A stretch of 64,000 bases of DNA from an uncultured Planctomycetia bacterium (GTDB lineage: Bacteria; Omnitrophota; Gorgyraeia; Pluralincolimonadales; Pluralincolimonadaceae), in the NCBI GenBank assembly GCA_964650515.1, contig CAZYUB010000001.1, positions 1,726 through 65,725 of the forward strand, written 5' to 3'. This document shows positions 12,256 through 42,069 of the stretch, in pieces. The number at the start of each line of letters is the position of its first letter. Position 1 is the stretch's first letter. The position numbers and the translations under genes are program-made. The notes below the pieces were generated by a model that saw only the letters and a list, made by a program, of their open reading frames with translations, searched no databases and was not told the origin of the DNA.

Positions 12256-12260
12256 AATAT

Positions 12261-16515: not shown

Positions 16516-16576
16516 ATTATAACTCATTGACCGTTGCGTGTAAACAACGGGGGCCCGCAATCATCCGGGCCCCCGC
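16516..16576 (-). promoter_or_regulatory. Terminator hairpin (16549..16575) overlapping a sigma70 promoter TTTACA-N17-TATAAT for the 16495 operon
   Basis: Hairpin gggggcccg…cgggccccc. On the minus strand, TTTACA (plus 16539-16544), 17-nt spacer, TATAAT (plus 16516-16521), then the AAAAGGAGG RBS. Confidence 0.5.
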
Positions 16577-16587
16577 TATGTTAACTA

Positions 16588-17241: not shown

Positions 17242-17380
17242 TATTTCACCTCCTTTCATTATTAAGTTAAACGTTTTCCTTTCAAACCTTAAAAAAAGGA
17301 AAACGATTTCCTTTACTTGGAAAGTCTATCATATCCCAGAATAAAGTCAAGATTATTAAATTGTTATTTTGTAGTAATAA

Positions 17381-19698: not shown

Positions 19699-19701
19699 AA
19701 G

Positions 19702-20544: not shown

Positions 20545-21046
20545 TCTCGAACGACTTCTTTATTACCAATATTTTCTTCTTGAGGTCGGCTTCCTGCTTT
20601 TCGTCGTCAACGAACGATACGCCGATATCATATTTTTCCGGTTCCTGCTCCGCCGGGGACTTGACCCAGCTGACCTTTACCAGCGTCTTTACCGGCTCTA
20701 TATCGTTGCCGGGCATTATATCCAGTGTTATATGCATCTCAGGAACCAGGTCCTTATTGAACTCTTCGCCGTTTCCGTTATCTTCCTTAAGCCTGCATTT
20801 CGAATTATGGACCCATCCGAGGCAATTCGAGCAGCTGTCGCAATGCCATGAGCGCGGCCACTCAAGCAAGGCACCCCCCTCACTTAAGTTCTTTGCTTTC
20901 AATGGGATATCGCCGGAAATATCCGTCTTCTTTTGAGGATCTACAAGCTTCCCTTTAATAGCAACATTTATTTCGACACGTTTAAACTTTCTGCGTTCCA
21001 AGTTTTTCTCCTTGTACACCAAATTTAGAAGTTCAGTATAACACAA
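20537..21046 (-). CDS. PilZ-domain c-di-GMP-binding protein
   Basis: N-terminal RRKFKRV (RxxxR) and D-x-S-x-x-G-like LSEGGALL motifs characteristic of PilZ. Confidence 0.6.
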   Translation of the reverse strand: MCYTELLNLVYKEKNLERRKFKRVEINVAIKGKLVDPQKKTDISGDIPLKAKNLSEGGALLEWPRSWHCDSCSNCLGWVHNSKCRLKEDNGNGEEFNKDLVPEMHITLDIMPGNDIEPVKTLVKVSWVKSPAEQEPEKYDIGVSFVDDEKQEADLKKKILVIKKSFEND

Positions 21047-24176: not shown

Positions 24177-24190
24177 CGGTTCACCATATA

Positions 24191-25324: not shown

Positions 25325-25342
25325 GATATTACCTCCGTATAA

Positions 25343-27007: not shown

Positions 27008-28208
27008 GATAGATACTTTCGGTTTTCAACGACACCGCTTCCCAGGAGTAGTTATCCTCCGCATATTTCCTCAGTTCTCGGGACCTTCCCGAATAATATT
27101 CTTTTTTATCAAGATATTTCAACATGCCTTTGGCCATTTCCCTAACCCCTGTCCCGGTAAAAAGCATGCCATCGTCGATCTTTCCCAGTATTTCCGGGGT
27201 TGCGCCTACCGGAGTACCGAGGACCGGTATTCCGCAGGATAGGGCCTCTATGGTAACAAGGCCGAACCATTCATCTTGTTCGCTTGGGACAACAAATATA
27301 TCGCAAGACTGGTAATAACCAGGCATTTTGGCGGCCTCGACCGCTCCTTTCAGCATTACGTTATCCTTGAGCCCCTCATCTTCTATTATACCGAGAAGCT
27401 TATCTCGCAGAAAACCGTCCCCGAGTATCATGAGAAACGCCCCTTTCTCCTTATCGACAACATGCCTGAATGCACGGATAAGGTTCTCCAGCCCCATGCG
27501 CGCCACAAGCCTTCTTGCGGTAAGAAATATTACGCCGTCTTCCGGAATAGATAGCTCCGCTCTCTTCGCCCCCTTTTCCGCGTATGGAGAGAACCTGGCC
27601 GTGTCGACACCTCCGGGAACCAACTCTATCATTTTTTCATCCTGACCGTATGTCCCCGTCAGGTATCCTTTGCTGAACATGCTCAATACAACAATAACAG
27701 AGGCGTGCTTGAGGCACTCTATCTCGATCCAACGGATCAATGATATCGCTATGCCGTCCAGGATCCTCGGGAAATACCTCCTCTTCCTTATCTGGACTTT
27801 TACGTCTTCCGACATGGACGAATGAAATGTATAGACCTTGCGCGCATTCCTGCAGGCCGGCGAACGGCTAATTCCGAATGCAGGCAATGGGTGATGAAAA
27901 TTGACCACATCGAATCCGATCTTTCTCTGGAGCACACGGAACAGCGCCCTTGAATTAAGTATGCTGGCGATCGGTCTTAAAACAAAAAGAAGCGGGCCAT
28001 GGAGCGCCGTACCATATCTAAAGACCTTTATCCCGTCGATTATCTCGTGCGATAACACGCTCTTGCCCGTCTTTATCGTAAGTACGTATACGTCATGCCC
28101 GCGTTCCGCCATATTCTTGGACAAGTTATATACGTACGTATGGGCGCCTCCGAACCCGTCGGGATAAAACCCCTCTGTTACCATAAGCACCTTCAACTTA
28201 CTGTCCAT
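26997..28208 (-). CDS. GT4-family glycosyltransferase
   Basis: GT-B fold with N-terminal glycine-rich YPDGFGGAHTY motif and conserved C-terminal region. Confidence 0.7.
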   Translation of the reverse strand: MDSKLKVLMVTEGFYPDGFGGAHTYVYNLSKNMAERGHDVYVLTIKTGKSVLSHEIIDGIKVFRYGTALHGPLLFVLRPIASILNSRALFRVLQRKIGFDVVNFHHPLPAFGISRSPACRNARKVYTFHSSMSEDVKVQIRKRRYFPRILDGIAISLIRWIEIECLKHASVIVVLSMFSKGYLTGTYGQDEKMIELVPGGVDTARFSPYAEKGAKRAELSIPEDGVIFLTARRLVARMGLENLIRAFRHVVDKEKGAFLMILGDGFLRDKLLGIIEDEGLKDNVMLKGAVEAAKMPGYYQSCDIFVVPSEQDEWFGLVTIEALSCGIPVLGTPVGATPEILGKIDDGMLFTGTGVREMAKGMLKYLDKKEYYSGRSRELRKYAEDNYSWEAVSLKTESIYREK

Positions 28209-29352
28209 TAGTTTGATTCGACCCCTTTTTGGCTATTTCGCTGTATAGATTCTCATGCTTGCGGACCATCGCGTTAAGGGAGAATATTTCTTCCACCCTC
28301 CTGCGCCCGGACAGGCCCATGCGGCGGGCTTTCTCCCTGTTCCTTATCAGCTCCATTATTGCCTGCGCGAACGATCTGCAGTCCTTCGGCGCGATTAAGA
28401 ATCCGGTCTCGCCGTTTACGACAAGCTCCGACACCCCTCCGACATCGAACGATATCACCGGCTTCTCCATTGCCATCGCTTCCATGTTCACCACAGCCAA
28501 CGCCTCCGTCAGCGAAGAAAGCGCCGAGATGTCCAGATCGGCTATTATCGCCGGGACATCGGTCCTGTAACCCGTGAATATAACCTTCGATTCGATCCCG
28601 AGGGTTTTTGCTAATTTCTGCTGCTCCTGCAGTAGGGGGCCGTCCCCCACGATCAAAAACCTTGTTTCGGGTTCTTCTTTCAGCACATCTGCAGCGGCCA
28701 TAAGCAGGTATTGATGGGACTTTTGTGCGTTTATCCTGCCAATCATCCCTACGAGCGGGGCTTCTGCCGGTATGTTGTATTCAGCCCTGATTCTCCCCCT
28801 ATCCATGCTCCTGTCGTAAAGGCGGAGGTCGAGGCCTGCATATATGACTTCCAGCTTGTTCCCGTCCGCCTTTTCATATAATACAAGATCGTCGGCGATG
28901 CTCTTTGAAGCGCATATTATCTTAGCCGCAGTGGCAATGGTTATCTTGTCGAAACGAACAAAAGCGGCTCTTTTGAGCCTGCCGATAGGGGACTCGCTTA
29001 TGGAAAGATGCCTGGTAAATATCATAGGCATGCCGGCAAGCCGGCATGCTATTGCGCCGAAAAGATCGAGCCTTGGCTGGTGTGAATGCAAGACGTCTAT
29101 CTTCTTCTCCCGTAAATAGCGCTTTATCTTCAATATTGCAGCGACATCCAGGTGCATGTGCGTGTCCAGCGGCAAAACTTCCGCACCGGCTTCTTCAAAA
29201 TCTTTCCTCATGACACCTTTAGAAGCATAAGCTATCACGAAACGGAAACTCGACCTGTCTATGCTCTTTAGCATCGCGAGGAGCAGGGTCTCGGCCCCTC
29301 CAACTCCCTTGTTCTGTTCCGTAGCCGTAATAAGATGAAGCACGTTTATCAT
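28198..29352 (-). CDS. GT4-family glycosyltransferase
   Basis: GT-B fold with GVGGAETLL motif. Confidence 0.7.
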   Translation of the reverse strand: MINVLHLITATEQNKGVGGAETLLLAMLKSIDRSSFRFVIAYASKGVMRKDFEEAGAEVLPLDTHMHLDVAAILKIKRYLREKKIDVLHSHQPRLDLFGAIACRLAGMPMIFTRHLSISESPIGRLKRAAFVRFDKITIATAAKIICASKSIADDLVLYEKADGNKLEVIYAGLDLRLYDRSMDRGRIRAEYNIPAEAPLVGMIGRINAQKSHQYLLMAAADVLKEEPETRFLIVGDGPLLQEQQKLAKTLGIESKVIFTGYRTDVPAIIADLDISALSSLTEALAVVNMEAMAMEKPVISFDVGGVSELVVNGETGFLIAPKDCRSFAQAIMELIRNREKARRMGLSGRRRVEEIFSLNAMVRKHENLYSEIAKKGSNQTNGQ

Positions 29353-30758
29353 TTCGATCCGCTTTCTTCGGGTTGCATATTCAACGAGATCCCTTTCATC
29401 GCAAGTATCATGCCCAATATAATCCAGAAGAACTTCACGTGTATGGCGGCAACGAACATCGTCGAGATCAGGAACCCGAACAGCCCGATTTCCAAAGCCT
29501 GGCAGAAAACAGTCAATATGTGCTCATTCATCCTTTCCAGTATCCTTCGTGTCTCCTGCGCGTCCCTGAAGGCCCTTACTATAAGCAGGACAAAGAAAAG
29601 CAGTCCGGCGAAACCCGTTTCGGAACCTACCTCAATAAATATATTATGCTGGACAGAGGATGTCTTCGTCCTTACAAGCGGCATTTCAAAAGCTATCGGC
29701 CAATATTCCTGCCGCCACCTGCCTGTTCCTATGCCTATTACCGGATTTTTGGCCATCATCTTGGCTCCGACCATGTATCCGTCAAGCCTCGACCATATAC
29801 TGGGGTCGAGCTCCGCCATGGTAAGGGTCTGCAGCCTTTGCCATATCTTTTGCGGGACAAAAAAGAGCCCCATCGAGAATATGACCGCCAATGCGACAAG
29901 AGCCCAGATCCTTTTAGATCTGTCGACGAATTTCCAGGTGCAAAGGACTAAGACGATCGGAAGCCCCAGGAAAATAGCCCGCGAGAAGGTCAGGCCTATG
30001 ACGAATAGAAATAGGGCAAAAAACAACAGGCAGGCGACCTTCACCGCAATTCTACGGGACCTTATTATTAGCCCCACGGTGAAAGGGATGAGCAGCAAGA
30101 GACTTAAGGCAAGGTCGTTAGGGTCATTGGAAAAGCCCGTGACCCTCAGGATGCCCTCAGACATAAGCAGCCCTATCCCGTGCCTGCTCTGGTATATGGC
30201 CAGGACGGCAGTCATCGACCCCAAGATAAGCAATATAGTCACGATTATCATTATATCTTTCCTGGTCTTGGTGAGGTTGGCTATCAAGAAATAAAGCATG
30301 AATACTTTAAGGAGGTCGAGATAGTAGAATGAGCTTTCATCCCATCTTAGCACCGAGGACAATGTTACGATAAGCGCGAATACGATGAAATACGGTATCT
30401 GCCTGCTTTTGATCAGCTTGAAATCCCTGTATATCAATACGTGAAACGCCCAAACAAGGAATATGACAAAGGCGACCGCCGTGGTGATGTTCGAGTATTT
30501 GAGTCCGGGCATGAACTGCAACGGATGCAGATAGGCCGCAGCAATGAACAGAACCGCGCCGACGAAAGGGTTGAAGAGTATGCCAATGGATATTACGATT
30601 CCGAAAAATGCCGCAAGTACGATATGATAAGGAAAAATCAGAAGGGCCAGCCCCAAACAGAAGAATATAATTACGATAAACGCCTTGACAAGGGCCGGTA
30701 GCTCAAGTAACGGCCTTTCTTCGGCCTGCATATCCTGTCTGTGCTTAGCTCCGTCCAT
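29349..30758 (-). CDS. O-antigen ligase/polymerase-like membrane protein (Wzy-like)
   Basis: 469 aa with 10-12 TM helices and a large periplasmic loop, in the O-antigen ligase family architecture. Confidence 0.55.
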   Translation of the reverse strand: MDGAKHRQDMQAEERPLLELPALVKAFIVIIFFCLGLALLIFPYHIVLAAFFGIVISIGILFNPFVGAVLFIAAAYLHPLQFMPGLKYSNITTAVAFVIFLVWAFHVLIYRDFKLIKSRQIPYFIVFALIVTLSSVLRWDESSFYYLDLLKVFMLYFLIANLTKTRKDIMIIVTILLILGSMTAVLAIYQSRHGIGLLMSEGILRVTGFSNDPNDLALSLLLLIPFTVGLIIRSRRIAVKVACLLFFALFLFVIGLTFSRAIFLGLPIVLVLCTWKFVDRSKRIWALVALAVIFSMGLFFVPQKIWQRLQTLTMAELDPSIWSRLDGYMVGAKMMAKNPVIGIGTGRWRQEYWPIAFEMPLVRTKTSSVQHNIFIEVGSETGFAGLLFFVLLIVRAFRDAQETRRILERMNEHILTVFCQALEIGLFGFLISTMFVAAIHVKFFWIILGMILAMKGISLNMQPEESGSK

Positions 30759-31944
30759 TTTTCTTTATCTCTTTTTCATATATCCGCGCAAATCTTGTGG
30801 CCGCAGTCTCGTTGGAATGGTTCTTCACGACATAATCGAAAGCTGCCGAAGTCATCCTGTCTGCAAATTCTTTACCATTAAGCAGCTTAACGATATTTTC
30901 CGCGATCTCTTCGCTCGAACGCTCCGGGACTAGTATGCCCGTAATGCCGTTATCTATCATCTCCGACAGCCCGCCGATATCCGAAGCTATAACAGGAACT
31001 CTTGCCGCCATAGCTTCTATTACTGACAGGGACGTCGCTTCTTTATATCCTTTCACGTTTATCGACGGCACGAGGACGATATCCGATATTTTGTAGAACC
31101 CGGGCATCCTGTCGTATTCGGCCCCGTCTATCAGGGTCACCGATTCGATGAGTTCCTTTTCGGAGATACAATCGAGTATATTGCCCCTTTCGGGGCCGAC
31201 GCCGACTATCAGGAAGACCAAATCCGTTCTTCCGTATTTCGTCCTGAGTATCTCGGCCGCTTTTACCGCATATATTACCCCGCATTTGAGCACGAGCCTT
31301 CTCGGCACTAGGATTACTTTCTTTGACGGAATTATGCCAAGTCCTCTCTTTACCGATTCCCTGTCCAGAAGATTGAGCTTTCTCCTGAACGATTCGACAT
31401 CGATAAAGTTCTGTATGATCTCGATCTTCCCTTTCGAAAGAGGGGCCAAATCCACGACATGGTCCCTAAGCCTGGTATCTACAGACACGACGTAGTCCGC
31501 TCCTTCGTAAGACCTCTTTTCGGTATCAAGGAAGAGTTTCTTTTCGGATTCGCGTTTAATATGCCCTGCCGATTCCATCTCCTGTGCAAGTTCGCCGTGT
31601 ACCGTGATTATAAGCGGAAGCTCTGTTTTTATGCTTTTTGCCGCCGAAAACGCGATTATATCCTCCGTATTTACGATATCAGGTCTATTTTTCCGTAAAT
31701 ACCTCCCAAGCGCACGCCCCAATATGCATCCGATGGCATTCTGCCGGTAATAGACGCCGAGCCCCAGCGGGTCCAGGATCCTGCCTATCCCGCTTATTAT
31801 CAATGCGTTCAGCGCGGTCCTTTTCGGAAATATAACGTCTACGGAATGGCCAAGACCCTCAAGGCCGCTCTTTAACATCATGATGTGAGTGAACTTGCCC
31901 CCAAGCTGGGCATAATAATCTGCAGTAAGTATAAGTATCTTCAT
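30745..31944 (-). CDS. GT4-family glycosyltransferase
   Basis: GT-B fold with conserved C-terminal EATSLSVIEAMAARVPVIASDIGG. Confidence 0.7.
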   Translation of the reverse strand: MKILILTADYYAQLGGKFTHIMMLKSGLEGLGHSVDVIFPKRTALNALIISGIGRILDPLGLGVYYRQNAIGCILGRALGRYLRKNRPDIVNTEDIIAFSAAKSIKTELPLIITVHGELAQEMESAGHIKRESEKKLFLDTEKRSYEGADYVVSVDTRLRDHVVDLAPLSKGKIEIIQNFIDVESFRRKLNLLDRESVKRGLGIIPSKKVILVPRRLVLKCGVIYAVKAAEILRTKYGRTDLVFLIVGVGPERGNILDCISEKELIESVTLIDGAEYDRMPGFYKISDIVLVPSINVKGYKEATSLSVIEAMAARVPVIASDIGGLSEMIDNGITGILVPERSSEEIAENIVKLLNGKEFADRMTSAAFDYVVKNHSNETAATRFARIYEKEIKKNGRS

Positions 31945-32134
31945 GACGTAAACTCCTCTTTCATTCTCCCGAAATTCCCTAAAATAAATCGCGATAAGCC
32001 GTCGGAAGAATTACTATTCATCACTACAACGGTACGGTTGGTGCACGTCAATGTATCGAGCGACAGCGAACACTCTCTCGTATCGTTGTAATTGCTCCGG
32101 TTAATTAATAATATATATACTTTTGGTTCCACAA

Positions 32135-33457
32135 TCAACTATCCGTTACTGCGTTATTCTTGAATACCTTAATCAGCGACTGCATATCTAGGTTGACTAT
32201 CTTGATGCCGTTCCGTTTCAGCACGATGAACATTAAGACAGTTATTGCCATATGTGTTATCAACACGGAAAACGCGGCTCCGATCGCTTCGGCCTTAAGA
32301 AAATACAACGAGAAGAGCAATAACGCGATATTCAGGATGCCGCCAAAAACATAGATTCTCGCGAAATACCTGCTGAGATTGAACGGCAGCAATGCGAGGT
32401 TCGCAAAAATGTATGATACCGGCATGATAAGAATAAGCGGTGAAAGCACGCACAGGATCGTAGAGGACTTGGAATATCCCGGACCGAGTATTACCGATAC
32501 CACGCTGTTGCTCAATAAGAACACCGCTATGAAAACCGCAAGTGAAAGTATTGCGATCATTGCGAACAGCTTCCTAAGCTTTTGAACGGCTATTTCCCTC
32601 GAAACTGAAGCCGTCTTGGAAATATGCGGGTATACCGCCGCCAGTATAGGGTTAAATGCCTTGTTTACGAACGTTATCACTTTTTCGGCCGCGGAGAAGT
32701 GTCCTACTACGGTGTTATTTGTGAAAAGGCCCAATATGAAGGTGTTGCTGCTGGTATAAAGGCTTACGGAGACCGTGGAGATAAACACATGCCAGCCGTC
32801 CCTGATCACCTTTTTACAATCTTCTGCCGACGGCAATTTGAAGACGATACCGAACATCCTCGCCGCTACTACAAGGCTTATTATGCCGGCCGTGATCGAC
32901 CCGAATGAGGTTATCAGCGGTACGTAAATGAAGTCCTCTTCCCGTTTTATAAACAGGAATATCGCAATAAGGAATATCGTCCTTGCCGTCAGGTTAAGCG
33001 CTGCTATGGTTTTCATTCTTTCCATGCCCTGGAAAAGCCATATCGGGAAAAGCAGGTTCCCGACGACCGCGCCGAAGGAAAATGCGTATATGATCCAGTC
33101 TTGCCTGAATTTCGGTATGAAATACACCAGAGAGGACATTATCACGATGCTGGCAACCATCAGAACCAATTTAACAGCCGTTATGGAATTAAACATCAGG
33201 GACATTTTATGCCTGTCGTCCCTATTCACGGAGACTTCTTTAGTCGCCGAAAGGTTAAATCCGTAATCTGTAAGGATTACAAAATAGTAGGCAAGCGCCT
33301 GAGCAAAGTTCACAAGTCCGTACTTTTCAGGGCCCAGCACCCTCACGAGATAAGGCAAGGTTATGAGCGGGAAAAGATAGTTCGCCGCTTCAACCGACGA
33401 AAGGCTGAAGAAATTCGATATTAGCTGTTTCTTTTCGGCACTGAAGCTGTTGCGCAT
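32135..33457 (-). CDS. Polysaccharide flippase (Wzx-like, MOP superfamily)
   Basis: 440 aa with 12-14 TM helices and a flippase-family N-terminus. Confidence 0.65.
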   Translation of the reverse strand: MRNSFSAEKKQLISNFFSLSSVEAANYLFPLITLPYLVRVLGPEKYGLVNFAQALAYYFVILTDYGFNLSATKEVSVNRDDRHKMSLMFNSITAVKLVLMVASIVIMSSLVYFIPKFRQDWIIYAFSFGAVVGNLLFPIWLFQGMERMKTIAALNLTARTIFLIAIFLFIKREEDFIYVPLITSFGSITAGIISLVVAARMFGIVFKLPSAEDCKKVIRDGWHVFISTVSVSLYTSSNTFILGLFTNNTVVGHFSAAEKVITFVNKAFNPILAAVYPHISKTASVSREIAVQKLRKLFAMIAILSLAVFIAVFLLSNSVVSVILGPGYSKSSTILCVLSPLILIMPVSYIFANLALLPFNLSRYFARIYVFGGILNIALLLFSLYFLKAEAIGAAFSVLITHMAITVLMFIVLKRNGIKIVNLDMQSLIKVFKNNAVTDS

Positions 33458-34171
33458 TTATCCTTCTTTTCTTATTAAGAACCTGAAGTGGCCGCAAAAC
33501 AAAAGCTTCAAAAGGTTTACGTCCTTATCTGATTTGCCTGCGAATTTGCATAAAATTGTCACGGTAAAATTATACGGAGATTCTTTCTCGAAAAAACCGG
33601 AGAGGATCCCCGACAACAGCGGGATCTTGTTTGCCATGCGGGCAAAAATAAGGGTGAAGACGTCTATGCCCGGCCTTATCTCCATGATCCTCAAAGGGGT
33701 TTTGACCATACGGCTGAATCCATAGGGGGTAAAGTTATGCATGCTGAGGGAGTGGAAGGGTTCAAGGTGAGATGTGGACCCTGCAAGGAAACCGCCGTTC
33801 TTCAGCACCCTTGCGGATTCAGAGACCAGCTTCTCCGGCCTCTCGGCGTGTTCGAGGACTTGGTTGCAATAAACAAGATCGAAAGACCCGTCCGCAAATG
33901 GGATGCTGCTTCCGTCGTAAGTCATAAACACGGCGTCTTTCCTTTTTCTTGATTCCACTTCCGGGGAGGATTGTATATCAAGACCCGTCCATTCTATGCC
34001 GGAATCAATTTTTCTGAAATAGTCTACGGAATCTCCTTTCCCGCAGCCAAGGTCCAGCACTCTCTTTACAGCTCCGTATTTCATCGCTTCGTCCAGGAAA
34101 TACGTCGAAGATACCTGGCCGGGATTCTTGTTAGGTACAAAATTCGTTATTAGTTCGTCGCCTGAATACAT
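33458..34171 (-). CDS. Class I SAM-dependent methyltransferase
   Basis: Motif I VLDLGCGKGDS and post-I acidic residue. Confidence 0.7.
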   Translation of the reverse strand: MYSGDELITNFVPNKNPGQVSSTYFLDEAMKYGAVKRVLDLGCGKGDSVDYFRKIDSGIEWTGLDIQSSPEVESRKRKDAVFMTYDGSSIPFADGSFDLVYCNQVLEHAERPEKLVSESARVLKNGGFLAGSTSHLEPFHSLSMHNFTPYGFSRMVKTPLRIMEIRPGIDVFTLIFARMANKIPLLSGILSGFFEKESPYNFTVTILCKFAGKSDKDVNLLKLLFCGHFRFLIRKEG

Positions 34172-34256
34172 GCCTCTCCTCTAAAAAACAAAAAACCAAA
34201 ATCCATTAGCGCGGATCTTGGCTGCCTGATTCACCGAATATCCTCCTGGGCCCGGG

Positions 34257-35114
34257 TTAAAGGTGCCGGTGAATATACTCGGGAATATGGTATTCTATGC
34301 CTGTAAGGACATATCCTAGGATATTCGCACCGACACTTTTTAGCACGCTTTCCGCGCGCGCCACGACTTCCCTGCGGGTCCTTCCCGCCCTTATGACCAG
34401 CACCGTCCCATCCGCGATATGGCTTAATATACGGGCGTCGGAATACGGTATGACTGCCGGCGTATCCAGAATTATCCTGTCGTACTTGCCTTTGAGCTCG
34501 AACAGAACGTCTTTCATCTTCTGAGAGCTGAGCAATTCATTCGGGTTGCCGTGAATATGCCCGGCGGGGATGACAAAAAGATTCTTAGTGTCGCATGCCA
34601 CTAATACGCCGGAGATGTCCGACGAGCCGGACAATAATTCACCGAGCCCCTTTTCCGAGGATATGCCCATCAGGCCTCCGATAGAAGGCCTCCTGAGGTT
34701 GCAATCGATAAGAAGCGTGGGTTTCCCGGAATTTTGCGCCGTGACAACGGCCAGGTTGGCCGCTGCAACACTTTTCCCTTCTCCGGTTGACGCGCTCGTG
34801 ATGATAACAGACCTAAGTTTGCTTTCCCTTTCGGGGCAGAATATATGCGTATATATCGTATGGAACTGCTCGGCTACGGGACTGCCGGGATTATGGTATG
34901 CTACTATCTTCTTGTTTACTCCCGACGACAGAACGGCCTCCGCGCGGACCTGCGACGGCGCATCAACTGCAGGGCGCTGCGCTACAGGCGGGTTGCCAGC
35001 GGACGGAGCGGCCTGCGGAGTCGCCGGGCCGGACTGGAAGGCCTTGCCTTTTTCCTCCGCTGCCCTTTTTATGGCTTCGTTTATCTTGTTTATCCCGTTG
35101 CCGTTATCTTGCAT
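34257..35114 (-). CDS. Polysaccharide co-polymerase tyrosine autokinase (BY-kinase/CpsD-like ATPase domain)
   Basis: Walker A SASTGEGKS, Walker A' LLIDCNLRRP and Walker B RIILDTPA. Confidence 0.7.
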   Translation of the reverse strand: MQDNGNGINKINEAIKRAAEEKGKAFQSGPATPQAAPSAGNPPVAQRPAVDAPSQVRAEAVLSSGVNKKIVAYHNPGSPVAEQFHTIYTHIFCPERESKLRSVIITSASTGEGKSVAAANLAVVTAQNSGKPTLLIDCNLRRPSIGGLMGISSEKGLGELLSGSSDISGVLVACDTKNLFVIPAGHIHGNPNELLSSQKMKDVLFELKGKYDRIILDTPAVIPYSDARILSHIADGTVLVIRAGRTRREVVARAESVLKSVGANILGYVLTGIEYHIPEYIHRHL

Positions 35115-36735
35115 TCTTCTGCACCCCTGCTGCCTTTTCTTTGTTTGCGACCTCGATCACTTTTCTCCTGACCTCATCCTGGCTTACGTTATAGCTGATG
35201 GCGGCTATGGTAAAGAGTGTCACGTACAGGACTATCAAAAATATGGCGAGACCGCGCTGCTTGGCCGCTTTTGCGGCCGCCTCATTCTTGTCTACGATAG
35301 CGGAGATCCCGCCGAATATTTCATGTTTAAGGAAGGGCCTTGCGTCCTCCACACCCCTGAAGGAATGGTCCGCGAACTCCGCCAGGAAGACACATCCGAA
35401 GCCGGAGATGACGCCGAGTAGGAAAGCGACTATCCCTATTATCAGGACTTCAGGTTTTGAGGGTTTGAGCGGCAGCCTCGGCTCGTCGATTACCGTATAT
35501 TTAGTGCTCTTCTCCTGCGCTTCGGCGGATGCAAGCCTGTTCTCTTCGATCTTCAGCATAAGCATCTTGTACACGTTCTCGTTGACCTCGGTATCCCTGG
35601 TCAAAAGCGCGAGCTCCCTCTCCTGCTCGGGCAATGTCTGTATCTTCGATTCGTATTCCTTGACAAGCTTCAGGAGCTGCTCCCTTCTCTTCTTGAGGTC
35701 ATTGACCTCCTTCTCAGCGTCTTTTACTTTCTGGCTTAGGCGCTGGAAGAATAACGGGGCCGTCGTCGACGTGTCGCTGTCGACCATCTTCTCCGTCTCC
35801 AGCCGAAGATTCTCCCTTACATCCTCCATCTGGACCTGGAGGGAAGCGAGATCCGATGATTCCGGCTTTTCCGCCATCATTTGGTCGTACTGTGATTGCA
35901 GGCTCTGCAATTGGGAATTAAGGCGTGAAACCGCGGGATTGAGCTCCATGAGCTCTTCGGATATGATAACCGGGTCCCTTCCCGACATTTGCCTTTTCAG
36001 CAGGTCGAGTTTGCGTTCGGATTCCTTGAGGTTCATCTCGACAGCGGTAAGCGACGTCTGGTAGCTTGTCAGCATTGAGACGTTATAGTCGAGTTCTTTG
36101 CCGGGCAGCTGCATCGGGTATTGCGCGCGGAAATCGAAAAGTTTCTTTTCGGATTCCTCGAGCTTCTTCTTGTATACTTTCGCCTGCTCTTCCGCGAATT
36201 TTATAGCCGTCGCCGCCTGCGTGGTCTTCTTTGTCTTATTCTCGTCGATGAATATCTCGATTATCGTTTTTGTGACGTTCCTTGCCGCGATGGGATCCTT
36301 GTCCTCATAGGATACCTGGAAGACCTCGGGGGACCTCATCTTTACCTCGGAGCGTTTCCTTATGCCCATGAGCATCTTTTCGTACATGACCTGGTCGGTC
36401 ACGCCCTTGTCGAGGCCGAGGGTCCTGACGAGGGTCAGCAGGTGCGGATAACTCAATATTTTTTCTGTCAGTGTCTTCAGCTGTTCGGCAAGCGTCGGGG
36501 GCTGGCCGGTAGCGGAGGTATATACGGGCTCTTTCGTGGCTAACGGATTGACCGGCTTCTCTTCCTCCACCAGGATGAGGACCGAGGACCTGTAATACTT
36601 GGGCAGGAAGAAGCTTCCAATAGATGCGGTAAAGAATACGATGACAAAGGGCAGCATGAAAAACCATTTGCGGTGGAATATGATCTGGAGATAATCCCTG
36701 ATAGAACCCTGCCCCTGCCCAGGCGCCGTAGTCAT
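35104..36735 (-). CDS. Polysaccharide chain-length determinant (Wzz/PCP-like, PEP-CTERM locus type)
   Basis: N-terminal TM, long coiled-coil periplasmic domain and C-terminal TM. Adjacent to the autokinase. Confidence 0.65.
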   Translation of the reverse strand: MTTAPGQGQGSIRDYLQIIFHRKWFFMLPFVIVFFTASIGSFFLPKYYRSSVLILVEEEKPVNPLATKEPVYTSATGQPPTLAEQLKTLTEKILSYPHLLTLVRTLGLDKGVTDQVMYEKMLMGIRKRSEVKMRSPEVFQVSYEDKDPIAARNVTKTIIEIFIDENKTKKTTQAATAIKFAEEQAKVYKKKLEESEKKLFDFRAQYPMQLPGKELDYNVSMLTSYQTSLTAVEMNLKESERKLDLLKRQMSGRDPVIISEELMELNPAVSRLNSQLQSLQSQYDQMMAEKPESSDLASLQVQMEDVRENLRLETEKMVDSDTSTTAPLFFQRLSQKVKDAEKEVNDLKKRREQLLKLVKEYESKIQTLPEQERELALLTRDTEVNENVYKMLMLKIEENRLASAEAQEKSTKYTVIDEPRLPLKPSKPEVLIIGIVAFLLGVISGFGCVFLAEFADHSFRGVEDARPFLKHEIFGGISAIVDKNEAAAKAAKQRGLAIFLIVLYVTLFTIAAISYNVSQDEVRRKVIEVANKEKAAGVQKNAR

Positions 36736-36738: not shown

Positions 36739-38358
36739 TTACTCTTCCTTGATGTCCAGGATTCTCATAAGGTCCTTCTGCATCGCCTTGGACCGCTTCT
36801 CTTCTATCGGAGGGGTAAGCTCTACGCCGCCGGACTTCTCTATTTCATGCTCCAGGATCGGGTCGATCTTCTTTGTCCTGTCAATGCTCTCCTGGTATTT
36901 CTGCCTTGATATGTTCTGGCGGTTATCGCTTGTAAGTATATGGGGAGTTATAAAAACCAGCACCTCTTTTTTCACGTCCTGGTACGACTTGTTCTGGAAC
37001 AACAGCCCTATTATAGGGATGTCGCCGATCAGGGGCACTTTGTTTATCGTGCTCTTCTTGTCGTTCTTTATGAGCCCGCCGAGTATTATCGTCTCGCCGT
37101 CCTTTACCATCATCGTCGTATCCGCCTGCGTCGTGTCCTTCGCGACAACATTATCGACCTCGGCCACCCTCCTGGCCGTACTTACCTCAGGGTGTATCTT
37201 CATCGTAACGAAATTATCTTCCCCGATCTGCGGGGTCACTTCCAGCTTAATGCCTACGTCGACATACTTGATGTCCTGGACCAGCAGTTTCGTGACCGGG
37301 TCCGTCGTGGCGACCGCATAGGGCTCGCTGCTTCCTACGAGGATGTTCGCCGCTTCGCCGTCGATGACCACGATACGCGGGCTCGAGAGCACTTCCGTAT
37401 TCGCGTCGCTCTTCAACGCCTCGAGAGTGACCGTATATTCGTCGGGGGTCAGGCCGCCTATCTTATATATGCCTCCCGTGCCGCCGGTAGCTAGATTGAT
37501 GCCGAAATCCGTAAGCAGGTCGAGCGCGCCGGGATTGTGGTGCGAGTCTTCCCCTGTCCTGTCATACGCATGCTCCCATTCGATGCCGAATTTCATCGTG
37601 TCATCAAGAGTGATCTCGACTATCATCGCCTCTATCATGACCTGCTTATGCTGGGAGTCCCAGCCCTCGATGAAATTATCTATGTTCTTGAGGATGACCG
37701 GCGTCGCCCTCACCACTATACTGTTTGTCCGGTCATCTATGTATACGTCGCCTTTTTCCTTCGGTATGAGCTGGGTCAGCTTCTCTTCCATGTCCGCTGC
37801 CTTGGAATAAAGCAGCTTGTATTTCTTTATCTCCGTCTGCTGGTCGAGCTGCATCAGCGCCTCCTCGACCTCCTTGACCTTCTCCGGCGTGTCGGTTATT
37901 ATGACCTGGTTGCTCTTCTCGTTCGTCTCAATCCTTCCGCGCGCGGTCTTCATGGAAAGCAGTATCCGCTTAAGGTCCGCGACATCGGTGTAATTCAGCG
38001 TTATGACCTTCGTTTGCAGGTTGACGAACCTCTCCTGCTGCTGGGTATCCTGGTAGGAATAAACCGTTATGATCCCGTCATTCACGGAATAGAGGTAGTT
38101 GTTCGCTTTCAGGACCGAATCGAGCGCCTGGACGACCGTGACCTTGTCGAGTTTCACGGTGACGTTGCCTGTGACGTTCGTGCTAAGCACGACGCTCATC
38201 CCGCTCTGGTCCGCGATCATTTTTAGCACTTCTTCTATGCTTATGTTCTGGACATCGAGCGTGACTTCACCGTCTTCCGCGAACAGGGCCGCGTTCGAGG
38301 ACGCCAAGAGGAAAGCCGAGAACAGGAGGCAAAACAACAGTTGCTTACTGGATCTCAT
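36739..38358 (-). CDS. Secretin (GspD/PilQ family) with N-terminal periplasmic domains
   Basis: Signal peptide and the C-terminal secretin-domain signature …IILGGLIKNDKKSTINKVPLIGDIPIIGLLFQNKSYQDVKKEVLVFITPHIL. Confidence 0.75.
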   Translation of the reverse strand: MRSSKQLLFCLLFSAFLLASSNAALFAEDGEVTLDVQNISIEEVLKMIADQSGMSVVLSTNVTGNVTVKLDKVTVVQALDSVLKANNYLYSVNDGIITVYSYQDTQQQERFVNLQTKVITLNYTDVADLKRILLSMKTARGRIETNEKSNQVIITDTPEKVKEVEEALMQLDQQTEIKKYKLLYSKAADMEEKLTQLIPKEKGDVYIDDRTNSIVVRATPVILKNIDNFIEGWDSQHKQVMIEAMIVEITLDDTMKFGIEWEHAYDRTGEDSHHNPGALDLLTDFGINLATGGTGGIYKIGGLTPDEYTVTLEALKSDANTEVLSSPRIVVIDGEAANILVGSSEPYAVATTDPVTKLLVQDIKYVDVGIKLEVTPQIGEDNFVTMKIHPEVSTARRVAEVDNVVAKDTTQADTTMMVKDGETIILGGLIKNDKKSTINKVPLIGDIPIIGLLFQNKSYQDVKKEVLVFITPHILTSDNRQNISRQKYQESIDRTKKIDPILEHEIEKSGGVELTPPIEEKRSKAMQKDLMRILDIKEE

Positions 38359-40387
38359 TCGTGATCTCCTTTGTGGCGCGGACGGTCTTGTTCTTGCCTT
38401 CCGCCTTTGCCCTGTACAGCGCCCTGTCGACGTACTTTATAAGGTCGGTCTTATCAAGAGCGATATCCGGATAGCTCGCGACGCCGAAACTTGCCGTAAG
38501 GTTTATGACATTATCCTTGTTGCCGAACGCGTAATTCTTTATTACCATCCTTATCCTGTCCGCCAGGATATAAGCGCCCTCGAGGTCGGTCTCCGGCAGG
38601 ATGACAGCGAACTCTTCGCCGCCGTACCTCGCCACGACGTCGACTTCCCTGCATATCTTCCTCAGTATCTGGGCGATCTCTTTCAGGACCTCGTCTCCCA
38701 TCGGATGTCCGTAGCTGTCGTTGACCTTCTTGAACCCGTCAAGGTCCATCATTATTAGGCCGAACGGCTGCCTGTACCTCGCCGAGCGCAGTATCTCCTT
38801 ATCCATCGCCTCGCTGAAATACCTGTAGACATAAAGCCCCGTGAGCCCGTCGGTAATCGACAGTTCCGTGATCTTTTTATGCAATAGCGTATTATTGATG
38901 GCTATGCTGGAATGGCGCGAGATTATCGAGAATATCCTTAGGTCTTCACCGCTGAAAGCATTAGGGAAGGAGTTGGTCACCGCGAGCATGCCGATCGGCC
39001 TGTCGCCGGCCGTAAGAAGGTGGGCCTGGAACGAACTGAGTATGTTCCTGTTTTCAGAAAACGAATCGCTCAGGTTGCTGTTATCAGCCTGATCGACCGA
39101 AACTTGTTCCGGCAACAGTCTCCCCCCTGTTAACCTATTGAACGTTTCTATGATCTTAAGCTTAAAACCGTCGACCTCCTTCTGCGAAGCGGGGTATTTC
39201 ACTTCCACTATCACGCCCGTCTTCTTGGCCTCGTCGACAAATAACAAACCGCACAGATGGCAATCCAAAGAGCGTTCTATTATCTCAAGTATCGCATCTA
39301 TGATCTCTTTATAATCGAGCCTTGCGTATATTATATTACTAACTTCCTGGGATATTGTCAACTCATATAATTCGTCATCGAGCGAACGGGCGATATCGGC
39401 GAAAATCTTCTTGCCGGTCTTGAGTTTTTCTATCTGCGTGTTCGCTTCTTCGAGGCGTTTTTGCCAGTGCGACGATTCTATTGCTATCGATATCTCGTTC
39501 GTCAGGATCGTAAGCAGCGACAGGTCGTATTCTGTAAACTGTTCCTTCGAAACCTTGTTATTTACGTTAATGACGCCGATGACCTTGTCCTTTACCCGTA
39601 TCGGCGCGCTCAACAGGGACGAATTATAGTACCTGTTCGAATTCTGCCTCGAGAAACGCTCGTCCGCCTCGACGTCCTTTATAAGCAGCGGGCTGCCCGA
39701 CTTCGCGACCCATCCGGATATCCCCCTGCCGACCTTGATCCTCGTCTTGTTCGCGAGGTCTTCGCTCAATCCCCTCGATGCCCTTATTACGAGCTCCTGC
39801 GAATCGTCTTCCACGAGCATGAGCGACCCGAGTTCCGAGTCGAGCATGTTGGTTATCTTGTCGAGCACTTCGCCGAGGATATCCCTCGCGTGCGCCGAAT
39901 GAAGGCTCTGGGCGGCCTGGTACGCGTCCACGAGCCTGGCCATGAGCTTCTTGAACTGCTCGCTCTGTGACTGGAACTTATTCGTATCCACGCGGCCTTT
40001 TAATTTCTCGATAGCGCCGTCTATGTTAGCTTCAAAATCACTCCTGCCGGTAAACCTTATTATGCTTTGCCCTCGCTGGGGTTTCATGCCGAGGGACCTG
40101 TATGCCTCTTTCTCGTTGGTTATGCAGATCAGCAGGGGGATATCGGAGGTACGTGGGTCGTCTTTCAGCAGTTTATATACACAGAAACCGTTTATGTCGG
40201 TGACGGCGGGGTTCAGCAGGATAAGGTCCGGCATCTCTTCGCAGATAAGCTCTATCCCGTCGAGGCCGTTCGAGGCACGCAGAACAGTGTAGTCCCTGGC
40301 CGAGAGAACAGACGATATCTCCTGCGCTATGCCCTGGCTTTGCTCTATTATTACGGCTTTCTTCCTGTCCAACCCCTGCCTCCACAC
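38345..40387 (-). CDS. Response-regulator receiver – GAF – GAF – GGDEF diguanylate cyclase
   Basis: N-terminal receiver (phospho-acceptor Asp in DLILLNP), two GAF-like regions and C-terminal GGDEF with active-site RYGGEEF. Confidence 0.75.
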   Translation of the reverse strand: MWRQGLDRKKAVIIEQSQGIAQEISSVLSARDYTVLRASNGLDGIELICEEMPDLILLNPAVTDINGFCVYKLLKDDPRTSDIPLLICITNEKEAYRSLGMKPQRGQSIIRFTGRSDFEANIDGAIEKLKGRVDTNKFQSQSEQFKKLMARLVDAYQAAQSLHSAHARDILGEVLDKITNMLDSELGSLMLVEDDSQELVIRASRGLSEDLANKTRIKVGRGISGWVAKSGSPLLIKDVEADERFSRQNSNRYYNSSLLSAPIRVKDKVIGVINVNNKVSKEQFTEYDLSLLTILTNEISIAIESSHWQKRLEEANTQIEKLKTGKKIFADIARSLDDELYELTISQEVSNIIYARLDYKEIIDAILEIIERSLDCHLCGLLFVDEAKKTGVIVEVKYPASQKEVDGFKLKIIETFNRLTGGRLLPEQVSVDQADNSNLSDSFSENRNILSSFQAHLLTAGDRPIGMLAVTNSFPNAFSGEDLRIFSIISRHSSIAINNTLLHKKITELSITDGLTGLYVYRYFSEAMDKEILRSARYRQPFGLIMMDLDGFKKVNDSYGHPMGDEVLKEIAQILRKICREVDVVARYGGEEFAVILPETDLEGAYILADRIRMVIKNYAFGNKDNVINLTASFGVASYPDIALDKTDLIKYVDRALYRAKAEGKNKTVRATKEITNEIQ

Positions 40388-40449
40388 AGCAAAAAGGAGC
40401 CCATGATTTCCGGCTCCGGTTTTGATTGTTATATTAACAATACCATAAT

Positions 40450-40478
40450 AAAATACCCTAATTCGGGGTTTGTGTCAA
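40450..40478 (-). promoter_or_regulatory. Sigma70 promoter (TTGACA-N17-TATTTT) of the GGDEF regulator gene
   Basis: Minus-strand -35 is plus 40473-40478 and -10 is plus 40450-40455. Upstream is the same AT-rich UP-like element (AAATAACAATATAATTTCC) as the PEP-CTERM gene promoters. Confidence 0.45.
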
Positions 40479-40517
40479 GGAAATTATATTGTTATTTAGT
40501 AGTAATTTGTTGGGGTA

Positions 40518-40604
40518 TGGTGCCGGGAGAGGGGGTCGAACCCTCATAACCTTGCGGTCGCGAGATTTTAAGTCTCGTGCGTCTGCCAGTTCCGCCATCC
40601 CGGC
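40518..40604 (-). tRNA. tRNA-Leu (anticodon TAA), type II with long variable arm, CCA encoded
   Basis: Reverse complement GCCGGGATGGCGGAACTGGCAGACGCACGAGACTTAAAATCTCG…GGTTCGACCCCCTCTCCCGGCACCA, 87 nt. Confidence 0.85.
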
Positions 40605-40618
40605 GGTCTTCGGAAATT

Positions 40619-40693
40619 TGGAGGCGACGATCGGAATCGAACCGATGCATCGCGGTTTTGCAGACCGCTCCCTTACCACTTGGGTACGTCGCC
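40619..40693 (-). tRNA. tRNA-Cys (anticodon GCA), CCA encoded
   Basis: Reverse complement GGCGACGTACCCAAGTGGTAAGGGAGCGGTCTGCAAAACCGC…GGTTCGATTCCGATCGTCGCCTCCA, 75 nt. Confidence 0.85.
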
Positions 40694-40761
40694 TTAAACT
40701 AAGGGCGCTTAAGTTTTGGCTTAAGCGCCCCACAACCTGCCGTGAAACACTGCCTGTGCCC

Positions 40762-41172
40762 TTATCTGATCTTTACGTGCCCGCCCTTGTAAAGGTAGAC
40801 ACCGCCGCTGCCGTGGTTAGGGCATGTGATGATAACCACCGTAGAAGCCGTGCTTCCCGTGGGCTGCGCAGCATACGTATAGGCGGTCGTTCCGCTCGGG
40901 CATGTGAACACCGACTGATCGTCTATATACGTAGGAGCGCTCGTCAACCTGGTATTAAGTACGGCTATCGTGGCCGCCGGGTACTGCTCGTTGTTATCGG
41001 CGGTATACATCATGATCGCCGTGCCTATCTGCTTCAGGTTGTTGGCGCACGTCGTCTTCCTAGCCTGTTCCCTCGCCCTGCCGAGTGCCGGCATAAGTAA
41101 ACCTGCTAGTATAATTATGATGGCCATAACGACCAGCAGCTCGATAAGGGTGAAACCTTTTGTTTTACGCAT
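40762..41172 (-). CDS. Type II secretion/type IV pilin-like pseudopilin (prepilin N-terminal methylation domain plus DUF1559-like), copy 1
   Basis: [22 protein letters not shown] prepilin signal and hydrophobic helix, then …CANNLKQIG…Y, characteristic of DUF1559-type pseudopilins. Confidence 0.75.
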
Positions 41173-41634
41173 CTTTTTTCACCTCCTTTCCTGTGAAATT
41201 TGCCGCCCCAGGCGTACAGCCGGGGGCGGCATTAAAACCTACCTGATCTTTACGTGCCCGCCCTTGTAAAGGTAGACACCGCCGCTGCCGTGGTTAGGGC
41301 ATGTGATGATAACCACCGTAGAAGCCGTGCTTCCCGTGGGCTGCGCAGCATACGTATAGGCGGTCGTTCCGCTCGGGCATGTGAACACCGACTGATCGTC
41401 TATATACGTAGGAGCGCTCGTCAACCTGGTATTAAGTACGGCTATCGTGGCCGCCGGGTACTGCTCGTTGTTATCGGCGGTATACATCATGATCGCCGTG
41501 CCTATCTGCTTCAGGTTGTTGGCGCACGTCGTCTTCCTAGCCTGTTCCCTCGCCCTGCCGAGTGCCGGCATAAGTAAACCTGCTAGTATAATTATGATGG
41601 CCATAACGACCAGCAGCTCGATAAGGGTGAAACC
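40766..41634 (-). repeat. Tandem direct repeat: two 392-bp 100%-identical copies (40766..41157 and 41243..41634), period 477 bp
   Basis: Direct comparison of the two pseudopilin genes shows nucleotide identity from the stop codons through codon ~8. Only the first ~7 codons and the upstream regions differ. Confidence 0.85.
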
Positions 41635-41649
41635 CCTCTTCCTGTTCAT
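41239..41649 (-). CDS. Pseudopilin (prepilin N-terminal domain plus DUF1559-like), copy 2, identical to copy 1 after residue 7
   Basis: [15 protein letters not shown]…, 136 aa. Confidence 0.75.
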
Positions 41650-41664
41650 GTCCCCTCCTCTTTT

Positions 41665-42069
41665 TTAACGTATCCTTACGTTAGTGCCCTTGTACAGATA
41701 CACGCCGCCCGCCCCGTGGTTAGGGCATGTAACTATGACCCTCGTGGAAGGCCATGTAGGCATCGGCTGCGCGGCATAAAGGTAATTTGCCCCTCCCGAA
41801 GGGCAGACAAAGATATCGGTATCGTCGATATAGGTCGGCGCCGAGGTCAAGGCCGTTTGCAACTGGCCCGCGGCCGGATAGCGCCATGAATTGGCCATAG
41901 TGTACATCTCGAGCGCCATCCCTATCTGCTTCAGGTTGTTGGCGCACGTCGTCTTCCTGGCCCTTTCTCTCGCGCTGCTTAGAGAAGGCATTATCAGTCC
42001 GGCAAGAATGATTATGATTGCCATGACGACCAAAAGCTCTATAAGAGTGAAACCCATCTTACCCCTCAT
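41665..42069 (-). CDS. Pseudopilin (prepilin N-terminal domain plus DUF1559-like), diverged copy 3
   Basis: [50 protein letters not shown]…, 134 aa, about 60% identical to copies 1 and 2. Confidence 0.75.

Follow-up and report, generated by a model that had tools for sequence, protein, structure and literature searches.

A secretin gene linked to polysaccharide co-polymerase and tyrosine kinase genes in an exopolysaccharide/exosortase locus of Candidatus Omnitrophota

To our knowledge, every characterised capsule or exopolysaccharide (EPS) system of the Wzx/Wzy- or ABC-dependent type crosses the outer membrane through an outer-membrane polysaccharide export (OPX) protein. OPX, polysaccharide co-polymerase (PCP) and bacterial tyrosine (BY) kinase form modules such as Wza-Wzb-Wzc of Escherichia coli and the XrtA module described by the models TIGR03027, TIGR03007 and TIGR03018. 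Both pathway types rely on the PCP and OPX families, as stated in the part of the work of Zuckerman and colleagues considered here (Zuckerman, So and Hoiczyk 2025, PMC12475490). The present analysis concerns a secretin gene in a 64,000-nucleotide stretch of contig CAZYUB010000001.1 (assembly GCA_964650515.1), referred to below as the window. Its locus holds the same PCP and kinase families in the same three-gene order as these modules and, like the XrtA module, also has Wzx, Wzy, priming, GT4 and stp-type transferases, an exosortase, EpsI and PEP-CTERM proteins. Unlike in the OPX-PCP-kinase modules, the outer-membrane gene codes for a secretin without Poly_export or SLBB domains, and a diguanylate cyclase (DGC) gene is joined in the operon.

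Exit of glycans through secretins has a precedent. The same study, in the part considered, identifies PilQ/GspD secretins as the slime nozzles on which exopolymer secretion depends in cyanobacteria and Myxococcus, which makes the passage of a glycan through a secretin experimentally plausible (Zuckerman, So and Hoiczyk 2025, PMC12475490). The window secretin likewise belongs to the PilQ/GspD family that is implicated in the release of a non-protein exopolymer in cyanobacteria (PilQ) and in Myxococcus xanthus (GspD). However, those nozzles are, as far as that part of the study goes, ordinary secretins of the type IV pilus (T4P) or of a type II secretion system (T2SS), in organisms that also have Wza homologues; it proposes no link to PCP or Wzc and reports no genetic tie between the slime-nozzle secretins and the polymer-assembly machinery (PMC12475490). 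In the window, by contrast, the PCP and kinase genes share an operon with a dedicated secretin paralogue, and no OPX gene is seen nearby.

Secretins also serve proteins that carry C-terminal sorting signals. In the GlyGly-CTERM/rhombosortase system of Vibrio and the MYXO-CTERM/myxosortase system of Myxococcus, a C-terminal sorting enzyme is paired with a secretin exit (PMC11980579). For the PEP-CTERM/exosortase system, the founding paper does not mention secretins and left the outer-membrane route open (Haft 2006). A full-text literature search returned no description of a secretin-PCP operon, nor of a secretin tied to Omnitrophota, exosortase loci, OPX or Wzc.

The four-gene unit and its secretin

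Nearly all genes between 0.9 and 47.4 kb of the window lie on the minus strand. In order of transcription, three prepilin-type genes are followed, after a gap of 374 nt, by the genes for a DGC, the secretin, a PCP and a BY-type tyrosine autokinase. The elements are:

40762..42069, minus strand: three tandem prepilin-type genes, 134, 136 and 136 aa (KG/FTLIELLVV motif)
40450..40478, minus strand: promoter-like -35/-10 site (TTGACA-17-TATTTT), sigma-70-like, 5' of the DGC gene (consensus match only)
38345..40387, minus strand: diguanylate cyclase, 680 aa (Pfam, motif inspection)
36739..38358, minus strand: secretin of the clade termed A below, 539 aa, proposed EPS outer-membrane conduit (Pfam, NCBIfam, AlphaFold2, Foldseek)
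35104..36735, minus strand: polysaccharide co-polymerase, XrtA-type chain-length determinant, 543 aa (TIGR03007, GNVR, Wzz)
34257..35114, minus strand: cytoplasmic BY-type tyrosine autokinase, 285 aa, separate from the PCP (TIGR01007, TIGR03018)
34194..34223, minus strand: terminator-like hairpin with T-run directly 3' of the kinase gene (12-pair stem, T-rich tail; consensus match only)

The DGC gene and the start of the secretin gene overlap by 14 nt, the PCP gene begins 3 nt past the secretin stop and the kinase gene overlaps the end of the PCP gene by 11 nt. Because of these overlaps, the 3-nt gap, the promoter-like site and the terminator-like hairpin, DGC-secretin-PCP-kinase is the most economical candidate transcription unit, with a putative start at 40478-40450 and a putative end at 34223-34194. 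The promoter-like sites of this study are consensus matches only, and Omnitrophota may use other promoter types. The gene arrangement thus shows a unit that is predicted to be co-transcribable and translationally coupled, in which the secretin is joined to a DGC upstream and to a split PCP and BY-kinase downstream. The earlier note had placed the secretin immediately downstream of the Wzz-like and autokinase genes; the adjacency stands, but on the minus strand the secretin is transcriptionally upstream of both. The three pseudopilin genes it had located 2.4 kb further on are likewise real, but this spacing is taken up by the 680-aa DGC, which it had overlooked.

The secretin open reading frame (ORF) is intact. 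It is preceded by a Shine-Dalgarno-like AGGAG and codes for 539 aa with a signal-peptide-like hydrophobic N-terminus ending in AALFA. Pfam assigns PF00263 Secretin to residues 314-475 (155.8 bits), two PF03958 Secretin_N domains, and PF07660 STN and the GspD N0 domain to residues 34-100; it gives no match to AMIN. In an AlphaFold2 model, of a monomer and with a mean pLDDT of 75, N0 spans residues 31-100; two ring domains follow at 115-171 and 176-233, the barrel covers 239-475 and C-terminal helices take up 477-538. Its top Foldseek matches are PulD, GspD, ExeD and PilQ (E 1e-27 to 1e-23, best 3.6e-27). The sequence features of the Secretin superfamily are present, namely a C-terminal beta-barrel preceded by a signal peptide, an STN-like N0 and at least one ring-building N domain. 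The GspD/PilQ-family secretin announced in the earlier note is thereby confirmed, and its N-domain composition, which that note had regarded as informative, is N0 plus two ring domains.

Assignment to a narrower family is less direct. With GspD of the T2SS and PilQ of the T4P the protein shares the overall fold and domain plan, with N0, ring domains, a beta-barrel predicted to be gated and a C-terminal helical tail, and its sequence is about equidistant from both. Unlike them, it falls below both NCBIfam cutoffs (281.8 bits against 351.35 for the GspD equivalog TIGR02517; 275.2 against 284.35 for PilQ TIGR02515), has two ring domains, lacks a gspC or pilMNOP neighbour and carries a longer tail. 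The N0-N1-N2-N3 architecture and the context of GspD are also missing, with two N domains after N0 and no GspC-like, GspE, GspF or PilO gene in the 64 kb or beside any clade-A member; those of PilQ are missing as well, a DGC standing upstream in place of pilMNOP and the AMIN domain of many PilQ proteins being absent. OPX/Wza proteins are defined by PF02563 Poly_export and SLBB, to which the window secretin has no Pfam match. It is therefore proposed as a functional analogue of OPX and not as a member of that family. The C-terminal helical tail has a median length of 64 aa in clade A, against about 40 in the paralogues, and measures roughly 60 aa in the window secretin; it is the one clear structural difference between clade A and its paralogues. 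The N0 and gate-region motifs are conserved as in T2SS paralogues. Residues specific to clade A were considered as marks of a new interface, but the four positions found (Y88, R110, G232, M417) are too few to argue from and the idea was rejected.

The DGC consists of a receiver-like domain, two GAF domains and a GGDEF domain whose GGEEF motif (589-593) and RxxD I-site (580-583) are both intact. Its receiver (residues 1-100) barely passes the Pfam cutoff (32.6 against 30.2) and has neither the acidic DD pocket (EQ instead) nor the phospho-acceptor Asp (N instead) in the sequence VIIEQS ... DLILLN; judged by these residues, it is probably an unphosphorylated pseudo-receiver. In the PCP, transmembrane (TM) helices at about 24-42 and 493-511 enclose a periplasmic domain of about 450 aa; the GNVR and Wzz domains are matched and TIGR03007 reaches 275.1 bits (cutoff 278.85). 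The kinase carries a P-loop and C-terminal tyrosines, passes TIGR01007 (152.4 bits, cutoff 108) and does not reach TIGR03018 (154.4, cutoff 230.65). The separate PCP and kinase genes correspond to a PCP-2b-like split arrangement.

Secretin clades of the Omnitrophota and the OPX slot

Ten relatives of the secretin were collected from species-representative genomes, eight of them Candidatus Omnitrophota and two metagenome-assembled genomes (MAGs) labelled Planctomycetia/Planctomycetales. The best 120 of 788 protein homologues are labelled Omnitrophota/Omnitrophica, PVC-group or plain 'bacterium' only. The organism of the window is a Candidatus Omnitrophota. A metagenome scan contributed 80 further loci, and all loci were classed by their neighbours and used for neighbour-joining trees.

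In these trees the Omnitrophota secretins form paralogous clades that are specific to genomic context. The window secretin belongs to clade A, which comprises 94 distinct sequences and has a bootstrap support of 100/100 in a 71-sequence tree and 50/50 in a 171-sequence tree. In all 27 clade-A loci with a visible downstream gene, the secretin is followed by the PCP and then the BY-kinase gene, with gaps of -8 to +159 nt; these loci span 45-96% identity to the window secretin and three upstream contexts. Wherever the contig continues, Wzx, Wzy and glycosyltransferase genes come after the kinase. The gene 5' of the secretin is a homologous DGC, usually overlapping, in 18 of the 23 loci with a visible upstream gene; the four basal loci examined have a small tRNA_bind gene there, and one locus has yet another gene. 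Since the upstream gene varies, the conserved core is secretin-PCP-kinase. Phylogeny and synteny, to which the earlier note had looked for a decision, therefore delimit a distinct clade with an invariant downstream context. As a genomic pattern this core is well supported; the mechanism proposed for it below is a hypothesis.

Two accessory genes were observed within clade A. The tRNA_bind gene (PF01588, 106 aa) lies directly 5' of the secretin at L011 9460-9780, L014 9616-9936, L107 7572-7892 and L108 2678-2998; we take PF01588 to be the fold of the Bacillus subtilis secretion chaperone CsaA. In one locus (L013 13376-13786), a 136-aa gene of the 23S_rRNA_IVP family stands between the PCP and kinase genes.

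The sister clades have other neighbours. Clade B (44-47% identity) shows the order MBL-PilO-GspC-like-secretin-peptidase. Clade C (40-44% identity) shows PDZ-(GspG)-PilM/N-PilO-GspC-like-secretin-PDZ-GspE(MshEN)-(GspF); directly after it come either exosortase and EpsI or a priming sugar transferase with PEP-CTERM genes. In the P0069 group, which lies outside clade A, the secretin closes a complete operon of the type GspE-F-G-H-I-J-K-L-M-C-D. Unlike these sister clades, clade A never stands with PilO, GspC-like neighbours or a full gsp operon. Among about 100 loci, hidden Markov models (HMMs) of PCP, kinase, Wzx and Wzy match clade-A loci only, and outside the window the exosortase HMM matches clade-C loci only; no exosortase was seen within 10 kb in clade-A loci other than the window. 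Two MAGs, GCA_004196255.1 (on one 684-kb contig) and GCA_043814605.1, have both clade-A and clade-B secretins, which marks clade A as an additional, specialised paralogue distinct from the general T2SS/T4P secretin. A search for GspE homologues on the contigs of clade-A secretins returned only a full T2SS operon with its own non-clade-A secretin (P0069/P0195) and the GspE-F-G cluster of the MAG GCA_024231215.1 described below.

Inside the T2SS-like operons of clade C, exosortase and EpsI follow GspE with a 5-nt gap (L010 6440-18794) or follow GspF (L055), and the same pattern recurs in L006, L007, L064, L068 and L093. From their gene order, these loci are a direct genomic hint that PEP-CTERM cargo may exit by a T2SS, as GlyGly-CTERM and MYXO-CTERM cargo does. 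The pairing of a sorting enzyme with a T2SS thus has its counterpart in clade C and not in the window's clade A.

The position of the secretin can be compared with XrtA loci elsewhere. The window PCP matches plasmid genes annotated 'XrtA system polysaccharide chain length determinant'. On Vibrio alfacsensis plasmid pVa1 the order is XrtA/PEP-CTERM exopolysaccharide export protein (the OPX), PCP and XrtA-associated autokinase, and on Nitratidesulfovibrio (Desulfovibrio) vulgaris plasmid pDV it is OPX, PCP, autokinase and ExeA-like ATPase. The same logic applies to wza-wzb-wzc and gfcE-etp-etk of E. coli, to one Sphingomonadaceae plasmid and to one Diaphorobacter plasmid. As the OPX gene precedes PCP and kinase in these loci, the Omnitrophota secretin sits in the OPX slot. 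An OPX HMM was built from seven OPX proteins of the comparison loci and recovered each left-out member at E 1e-26 to 1e-47. Applied to 1.10 Mb (the window and 98 Omnitrophota loci), it gave no match better than E 0.83; the best window match, at E 3.9, agrees with the absence of Wza reported in the earlier note. Poly_export and SLBB had no Pfam match in the window, L011, L013, L014, L107 or L108.

In the window, the remainder of a polysaccharide pathway follows the kinase gene:

21957..34171, minus strand: Wzx/Wzy-type assembly genes (Pfam/NCBIfam; no OPX gene among them)
32135-33457, minus strand: Wzx flippase-like gene (weak, NF041871 60 bits; homologous to Polysacc_synt genes of L011, L013 and L014)
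29349-30758, minus strand: Wzy/O-antigen-ligase-like polymerase gene
21957-22994, minus strand: WecA-like priming transferase gene

The same interval contains genes for a methyltransferase, three GT4 glycosyltransferases, a GH20-like protein, a WecB epimerase and an stp1-type XrtA glycosyltransferase. Priming transferase, Wzx, Wzy and a PCP with BY-kinase are thus found in one locus. Neither the window nor any clade-A locus sampled has an OPX gene, and of the components of a Wzx/Wzy pathway the locus lacks OPX alone.

In the proteobacterial and Desulfovibrio XrtA loci, an ExeA/GspA-like ATPase follows the kinase. On pDV (L103 7385-8465) this gene, annotated as 'XrtA/PEP-CTERM system-associated ATPase', stands directly after it. 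The window lacks such a gene and has the secretin itself in the locus. ExeA helps to assemble the ExeD secretin in Aeromonas. The ExeA-like ATPase is an unexplained hint linking exosortase/EPS loci to secretin biology, and by analogy proteobacterial XrtA systems may also be secretin-dependent.

Competing readings of the secretin

We favour, with about even confidence, a reading in which exopolysaccharide from a Wzx/Wzy-dependent pathway under cyclic di-GMP (c-di-GMP) control leaves across the outer membrane through the clade-A secretin, in place of OPX. Clade A would be a case of non-orthologous displacement, a secretin having replaced OPX, because of the operon fusion, the invariant and exclusive linkage to PCP and kinase throughout a deep clade, the equivalence to the OPX slot, the absence of OPX from the sampled loci and the paralogy. 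A WecA-like enzyme and GT4 transferases would build repeat units on undecaprenyl phosphate, Wzx would flip them and Wzy polymerise them, with polymerisation governed by the PCP/kinase oligomer. The periplasmic domain of the PCP would extend to the secretin's N0/N-ring, as Wzc does to Wza, and the polymer would leave through the secretin pore. Production of c-di-GMP by the co-encoded cyclase would turn the system on; a PilZ-like protein adjoins the exosortase module. More speculatively, the wide pore may also release matrix proteins, which is proposed because an exosortase and five PEP-CTERM genes share the locus. If this reading is true, the secretin-PCP-kinase operon is a genetic link between a secretin and the polymer-assembly machinery, and it names a concrete pair of partners, the secretin N0/N-ring and the periplasmic domain of the PCP. 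It also touches on the question, dating from 2006, by which route PEP-CTERM/exosortase cargo gets across the outer membrane; in Omnitrophota, the polysaccharide genes (clade A) as well as the exosortase (clade C) are wired to secretins.

Several points weigh against secretin-mediated polysaccharide exit. The absence of OPX holds for the sampled loci, not for genomes as a whole. The secretin gates known so far open for a pilus, pseudopilus, needle or phage, and we know of no mechanism by which a PCP or a glycan would do the same. A PCP octamer would face a secretin of 12-15 subunits, a symmetry mismatch. With its four clade-A-specific positions, N0 is much like that of the T2SS paralogues and might bind a GspC/PilP-type partner, and a search of the clade-A PCP, kinase and cyclase for docking domains of the GspC-HR, PilO or PDZ-like kind gave nothing. 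Prepilin genes lie just upstream in the sub-lineage of the window. A clade-A secretin and a GspE-GspF-GspG cluster occur together in the MAG GCA_024231215.1; no secretin lies within 10 kb of the cluster, and this machine could use the clade-A secretin. Finally, a shared gene neighbourhood may mean co-regulation and not physical coupling.

One alternative we consider unlikely but substantial. The secretin would be the outer-membrane part of a T2SS/T4P-like machine with its ATPase, platform, alignment proteins and prepilin peptidase encoded elsewhere, exporting exosortase-processed PEP-CTERM cargo or other matrix enzymes or passing a fibre of the adjacent pilins; its adjacency to PCP and kinase would reflect c-di-GMP co-regulation of matrix protein and polysaccharide, the latter exiting otherwise. 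The prepilin and GspK-like genes of the window require such a machine, the secretin-less cluster of GCA_024231215.1 could be one, and the conserved N0 and gate-region motifs would suit it. Exosortase genes inside clade-C T2SS operons make secretin-dependent PEP-CTERM export plausible in the phylum, and GlyGly-CTERM and MYXO-CTERM cargo uses the T2SS (PMC11980579). However, T2SS/T4P paralogues in the same phylum and genomes own a secretin beside PilO and GspC-like genes, as clade A never does; the invariant neighbours of clade A are PCP and kinase and not exosortase or cargo, in an order that mirrors OPX-PCP-kinase. No alternative polysaccharide exporter was detected by the OPX HMM in any locus sampled, and more distant clade-A loci lack the pilins. 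Between the two options of the earlier note, machinery elsewhere or a secretin replacing Wza, comparative evidence favours the latter for the secretin, while the former must hold for the pilins and the GspK-like gene.

A combination of both ideas appears improbable to us. Here the polysaccharide would exit through the clade-A secretin while a pseudopilus built of the short pilins next to it would push it or gate its passage, with the T2SS/T4P core encoded elsewhere; for filamentous cyanobacteria such a proposal has been made concerning type IV pilus-like systems and hormogonium polysaccharide. The order coaB-pilin(s)-DGC-secretin-PCP is kept down to about 64-69% secretin identity, the pilins form a family of their own that co-occurs with the sub-lineage of the window, and the GspE ATPases of the phylum's T2SS operons carry MshEN, a c-di-GMP-binding domain, which fits the co-encoded cyclase. 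The slime nozzles, as described in the part of the study considered, offer a precedent for the secretin (PMC12475490). Yet the pilins are absent beside basal clade-A members and those of 51-60% identity, they have a separate promoter-like site, and none of the clade-A loci has a linked ATPase or platform.

Quite doubtful, too, is an extension of polysaccharide exit in which clade-A secretins dock on PCP/BY-kinase as a fourth kind of outer-membrane exit and export bulky, exosortase-coupled conjugates of PEP-CTERM protein and polysaccharide whole. The exosortase would join folded PEP-CTERM proteins to the growing polymer or to its carrier in the periplasm, and the wide pore would be needed because such a conjugate is too bulky for a Wza-type channel. 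If true, and taken together with the clade-C loci, secretins would be the long-sought outer-membrane route of the PEP-CTERM/exosortase system. That the adjacency has no functional meaning, being a relic or chance, or that the secretin gene is decaying, is hardly credible. No point was found in favour of this idea, and the conservation data contradict it: the ORF is intact with all domains and an upstream AGGAG, and the 94 members of the clade keep their context in 27 of 27 visible cases over three upstream arrangements.

Pilins, exosortase module and the rest of the window

The pilin genes and their upstream site are:

42141-42113, minus strand: promoter-like site ahead of the pilin genes (consensus match only)
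41665-42069, minus strand: prepilin-type gene, 134 aa, prepilin motif KG/FTLIELLVV
41239-41649, minus strand: prepilin-type gene, 136 aa, same motif
40762-41172, minus strand: prepilin-type gene, 136 aa, same motif

Judged by this layout, the pilins are probably a transcription unit separate from DGC-secretin-PCP-kinase. They belong to a lineage-specific family unlike the canonical GspG of T2SS operons. The GspK-like gene is present at 6469-8718 (minus strand, 749 aa), as the earlier note had it, but the assignment is weak: PF03934 36.7 bits with PilX_N, and NF037980 48 bits against a cutoff of 130. That note had also reported no GspE/PilB, GspF/PilC or prepilin peptidase in the 64 kb, and this is borne out. 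Among about 50 window ORFs, Pfam gave no match to GspE, GspF, PilD or Poly_export, and home-built HMMs run over six frames of the 64 kb found no GspE, GspF, PilO or GspC-like sequence (best E 0.35). The 6-TM protein 19702-20544 was considered as a hidden prepilin peptidase and rejected, having no GxGD motif and no family match. As the window lacks the prepilin peptidase and assembly ATPase that they need, the pilins and the GspK-like protein must be processed and assembled by enzymes encoded elsewhere; in relatives, complete T2SS operons that include a secretin of their own do occur. The view that secretin, pilins and GspK-like gene make up a single scattered system finds no support, because the pilins are lineage-specific, have their own promoter-like site and are missing from distant clade-A loci (the basal ones and those of 51-60% identity).

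Of the three pilin genes, the second and third (40762-41649) form a 477-nt tandem duplication, 100% identical over 300 nt, and their proteins differ in the first five residues only; either the duplication is very recent or the assembly has collapsed or expanded here. Next to the pilins, coaB (207 aa) and coaC (180 aa), at 42119-43286, are separate adjoining genes and not the usual coaBC fusion, and the split is retained in the relatives L001, L005, L008 and L009.

The exosortase part of the locus comprises:

17381..21046, minus strand: exosortase module with PilZ-like protein, 6-TM protein, TPR lipoprotein, XrtA-like exosortase and EpsI (family models, motifs)
2849..17259, minus strand: five PEP-CTERM cargo genes, interspersed with CBM-type proteins and the GspK-like gene (PF07589)
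2849-3490, 4113-4739, 10703-11335, 12261-12932 and 16588-17259, minus strand: the individual PEP-CTERM genes

Exosortase, EpsI and multiple PEP-CTERM proteins are thus all present, the five cargo proteins being recognised by PF07589. The exosortase lies 18 kb from the secretin and no T2SS gene adjoins it in the window. It passes TIGR02602 (148.5 bits, cutoff 105.55), as EpsI passes its own model (80.5 bits, cutoff 42.8). All XrtA-specific cutoffs are missed (XrtA 173 against 208, PCP 275.1 against 278.85, kinase 154.4 against 230.65), as is that of stp1 (TIGR03087, 300 against 316.65), and the TIGR03027 OPX is absent. By these scores the locus is classed as XrtA-like and not as a canonical XrtA system. 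The PilZ-like protein carries RxxxR and NxSxxG motifs, and an AraC regulator gene lies near it.

A 6-TM protein without family match and a TPR lipoprotein (YbgF/BamD-like) stand beside the exosortase in the window (18850-20544) and in the clade-C loci L010 (19699-21380) and L007 (16197-17965), where a GGDEF protein comes next in L007; the pair look like core partners of this exosortase type. The proteins 14086-15897 and 8808-10508 were considered as hidden exporters and rejected for want of an OPX signal and of any family match. A secreted protein of 175 aa (11453-11980) resembles the N-terminal part of the PEP-CTERM protein 12261-12932 without its PEP-CTERM tail and may be a truncated or tail-less paralogue. 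At the other end of the window (52310-64000), the minus strand carries parB, parA, gidA/mnmG and yidC, and the plus strand dnaA, dnaN and gyrB. Because the GC skew changes sign at about 58-60 kb and the dnaA/dnaN/gyrB set is present, the replication origin lies inside the window, about 10 kb from the start of the EPS locus.

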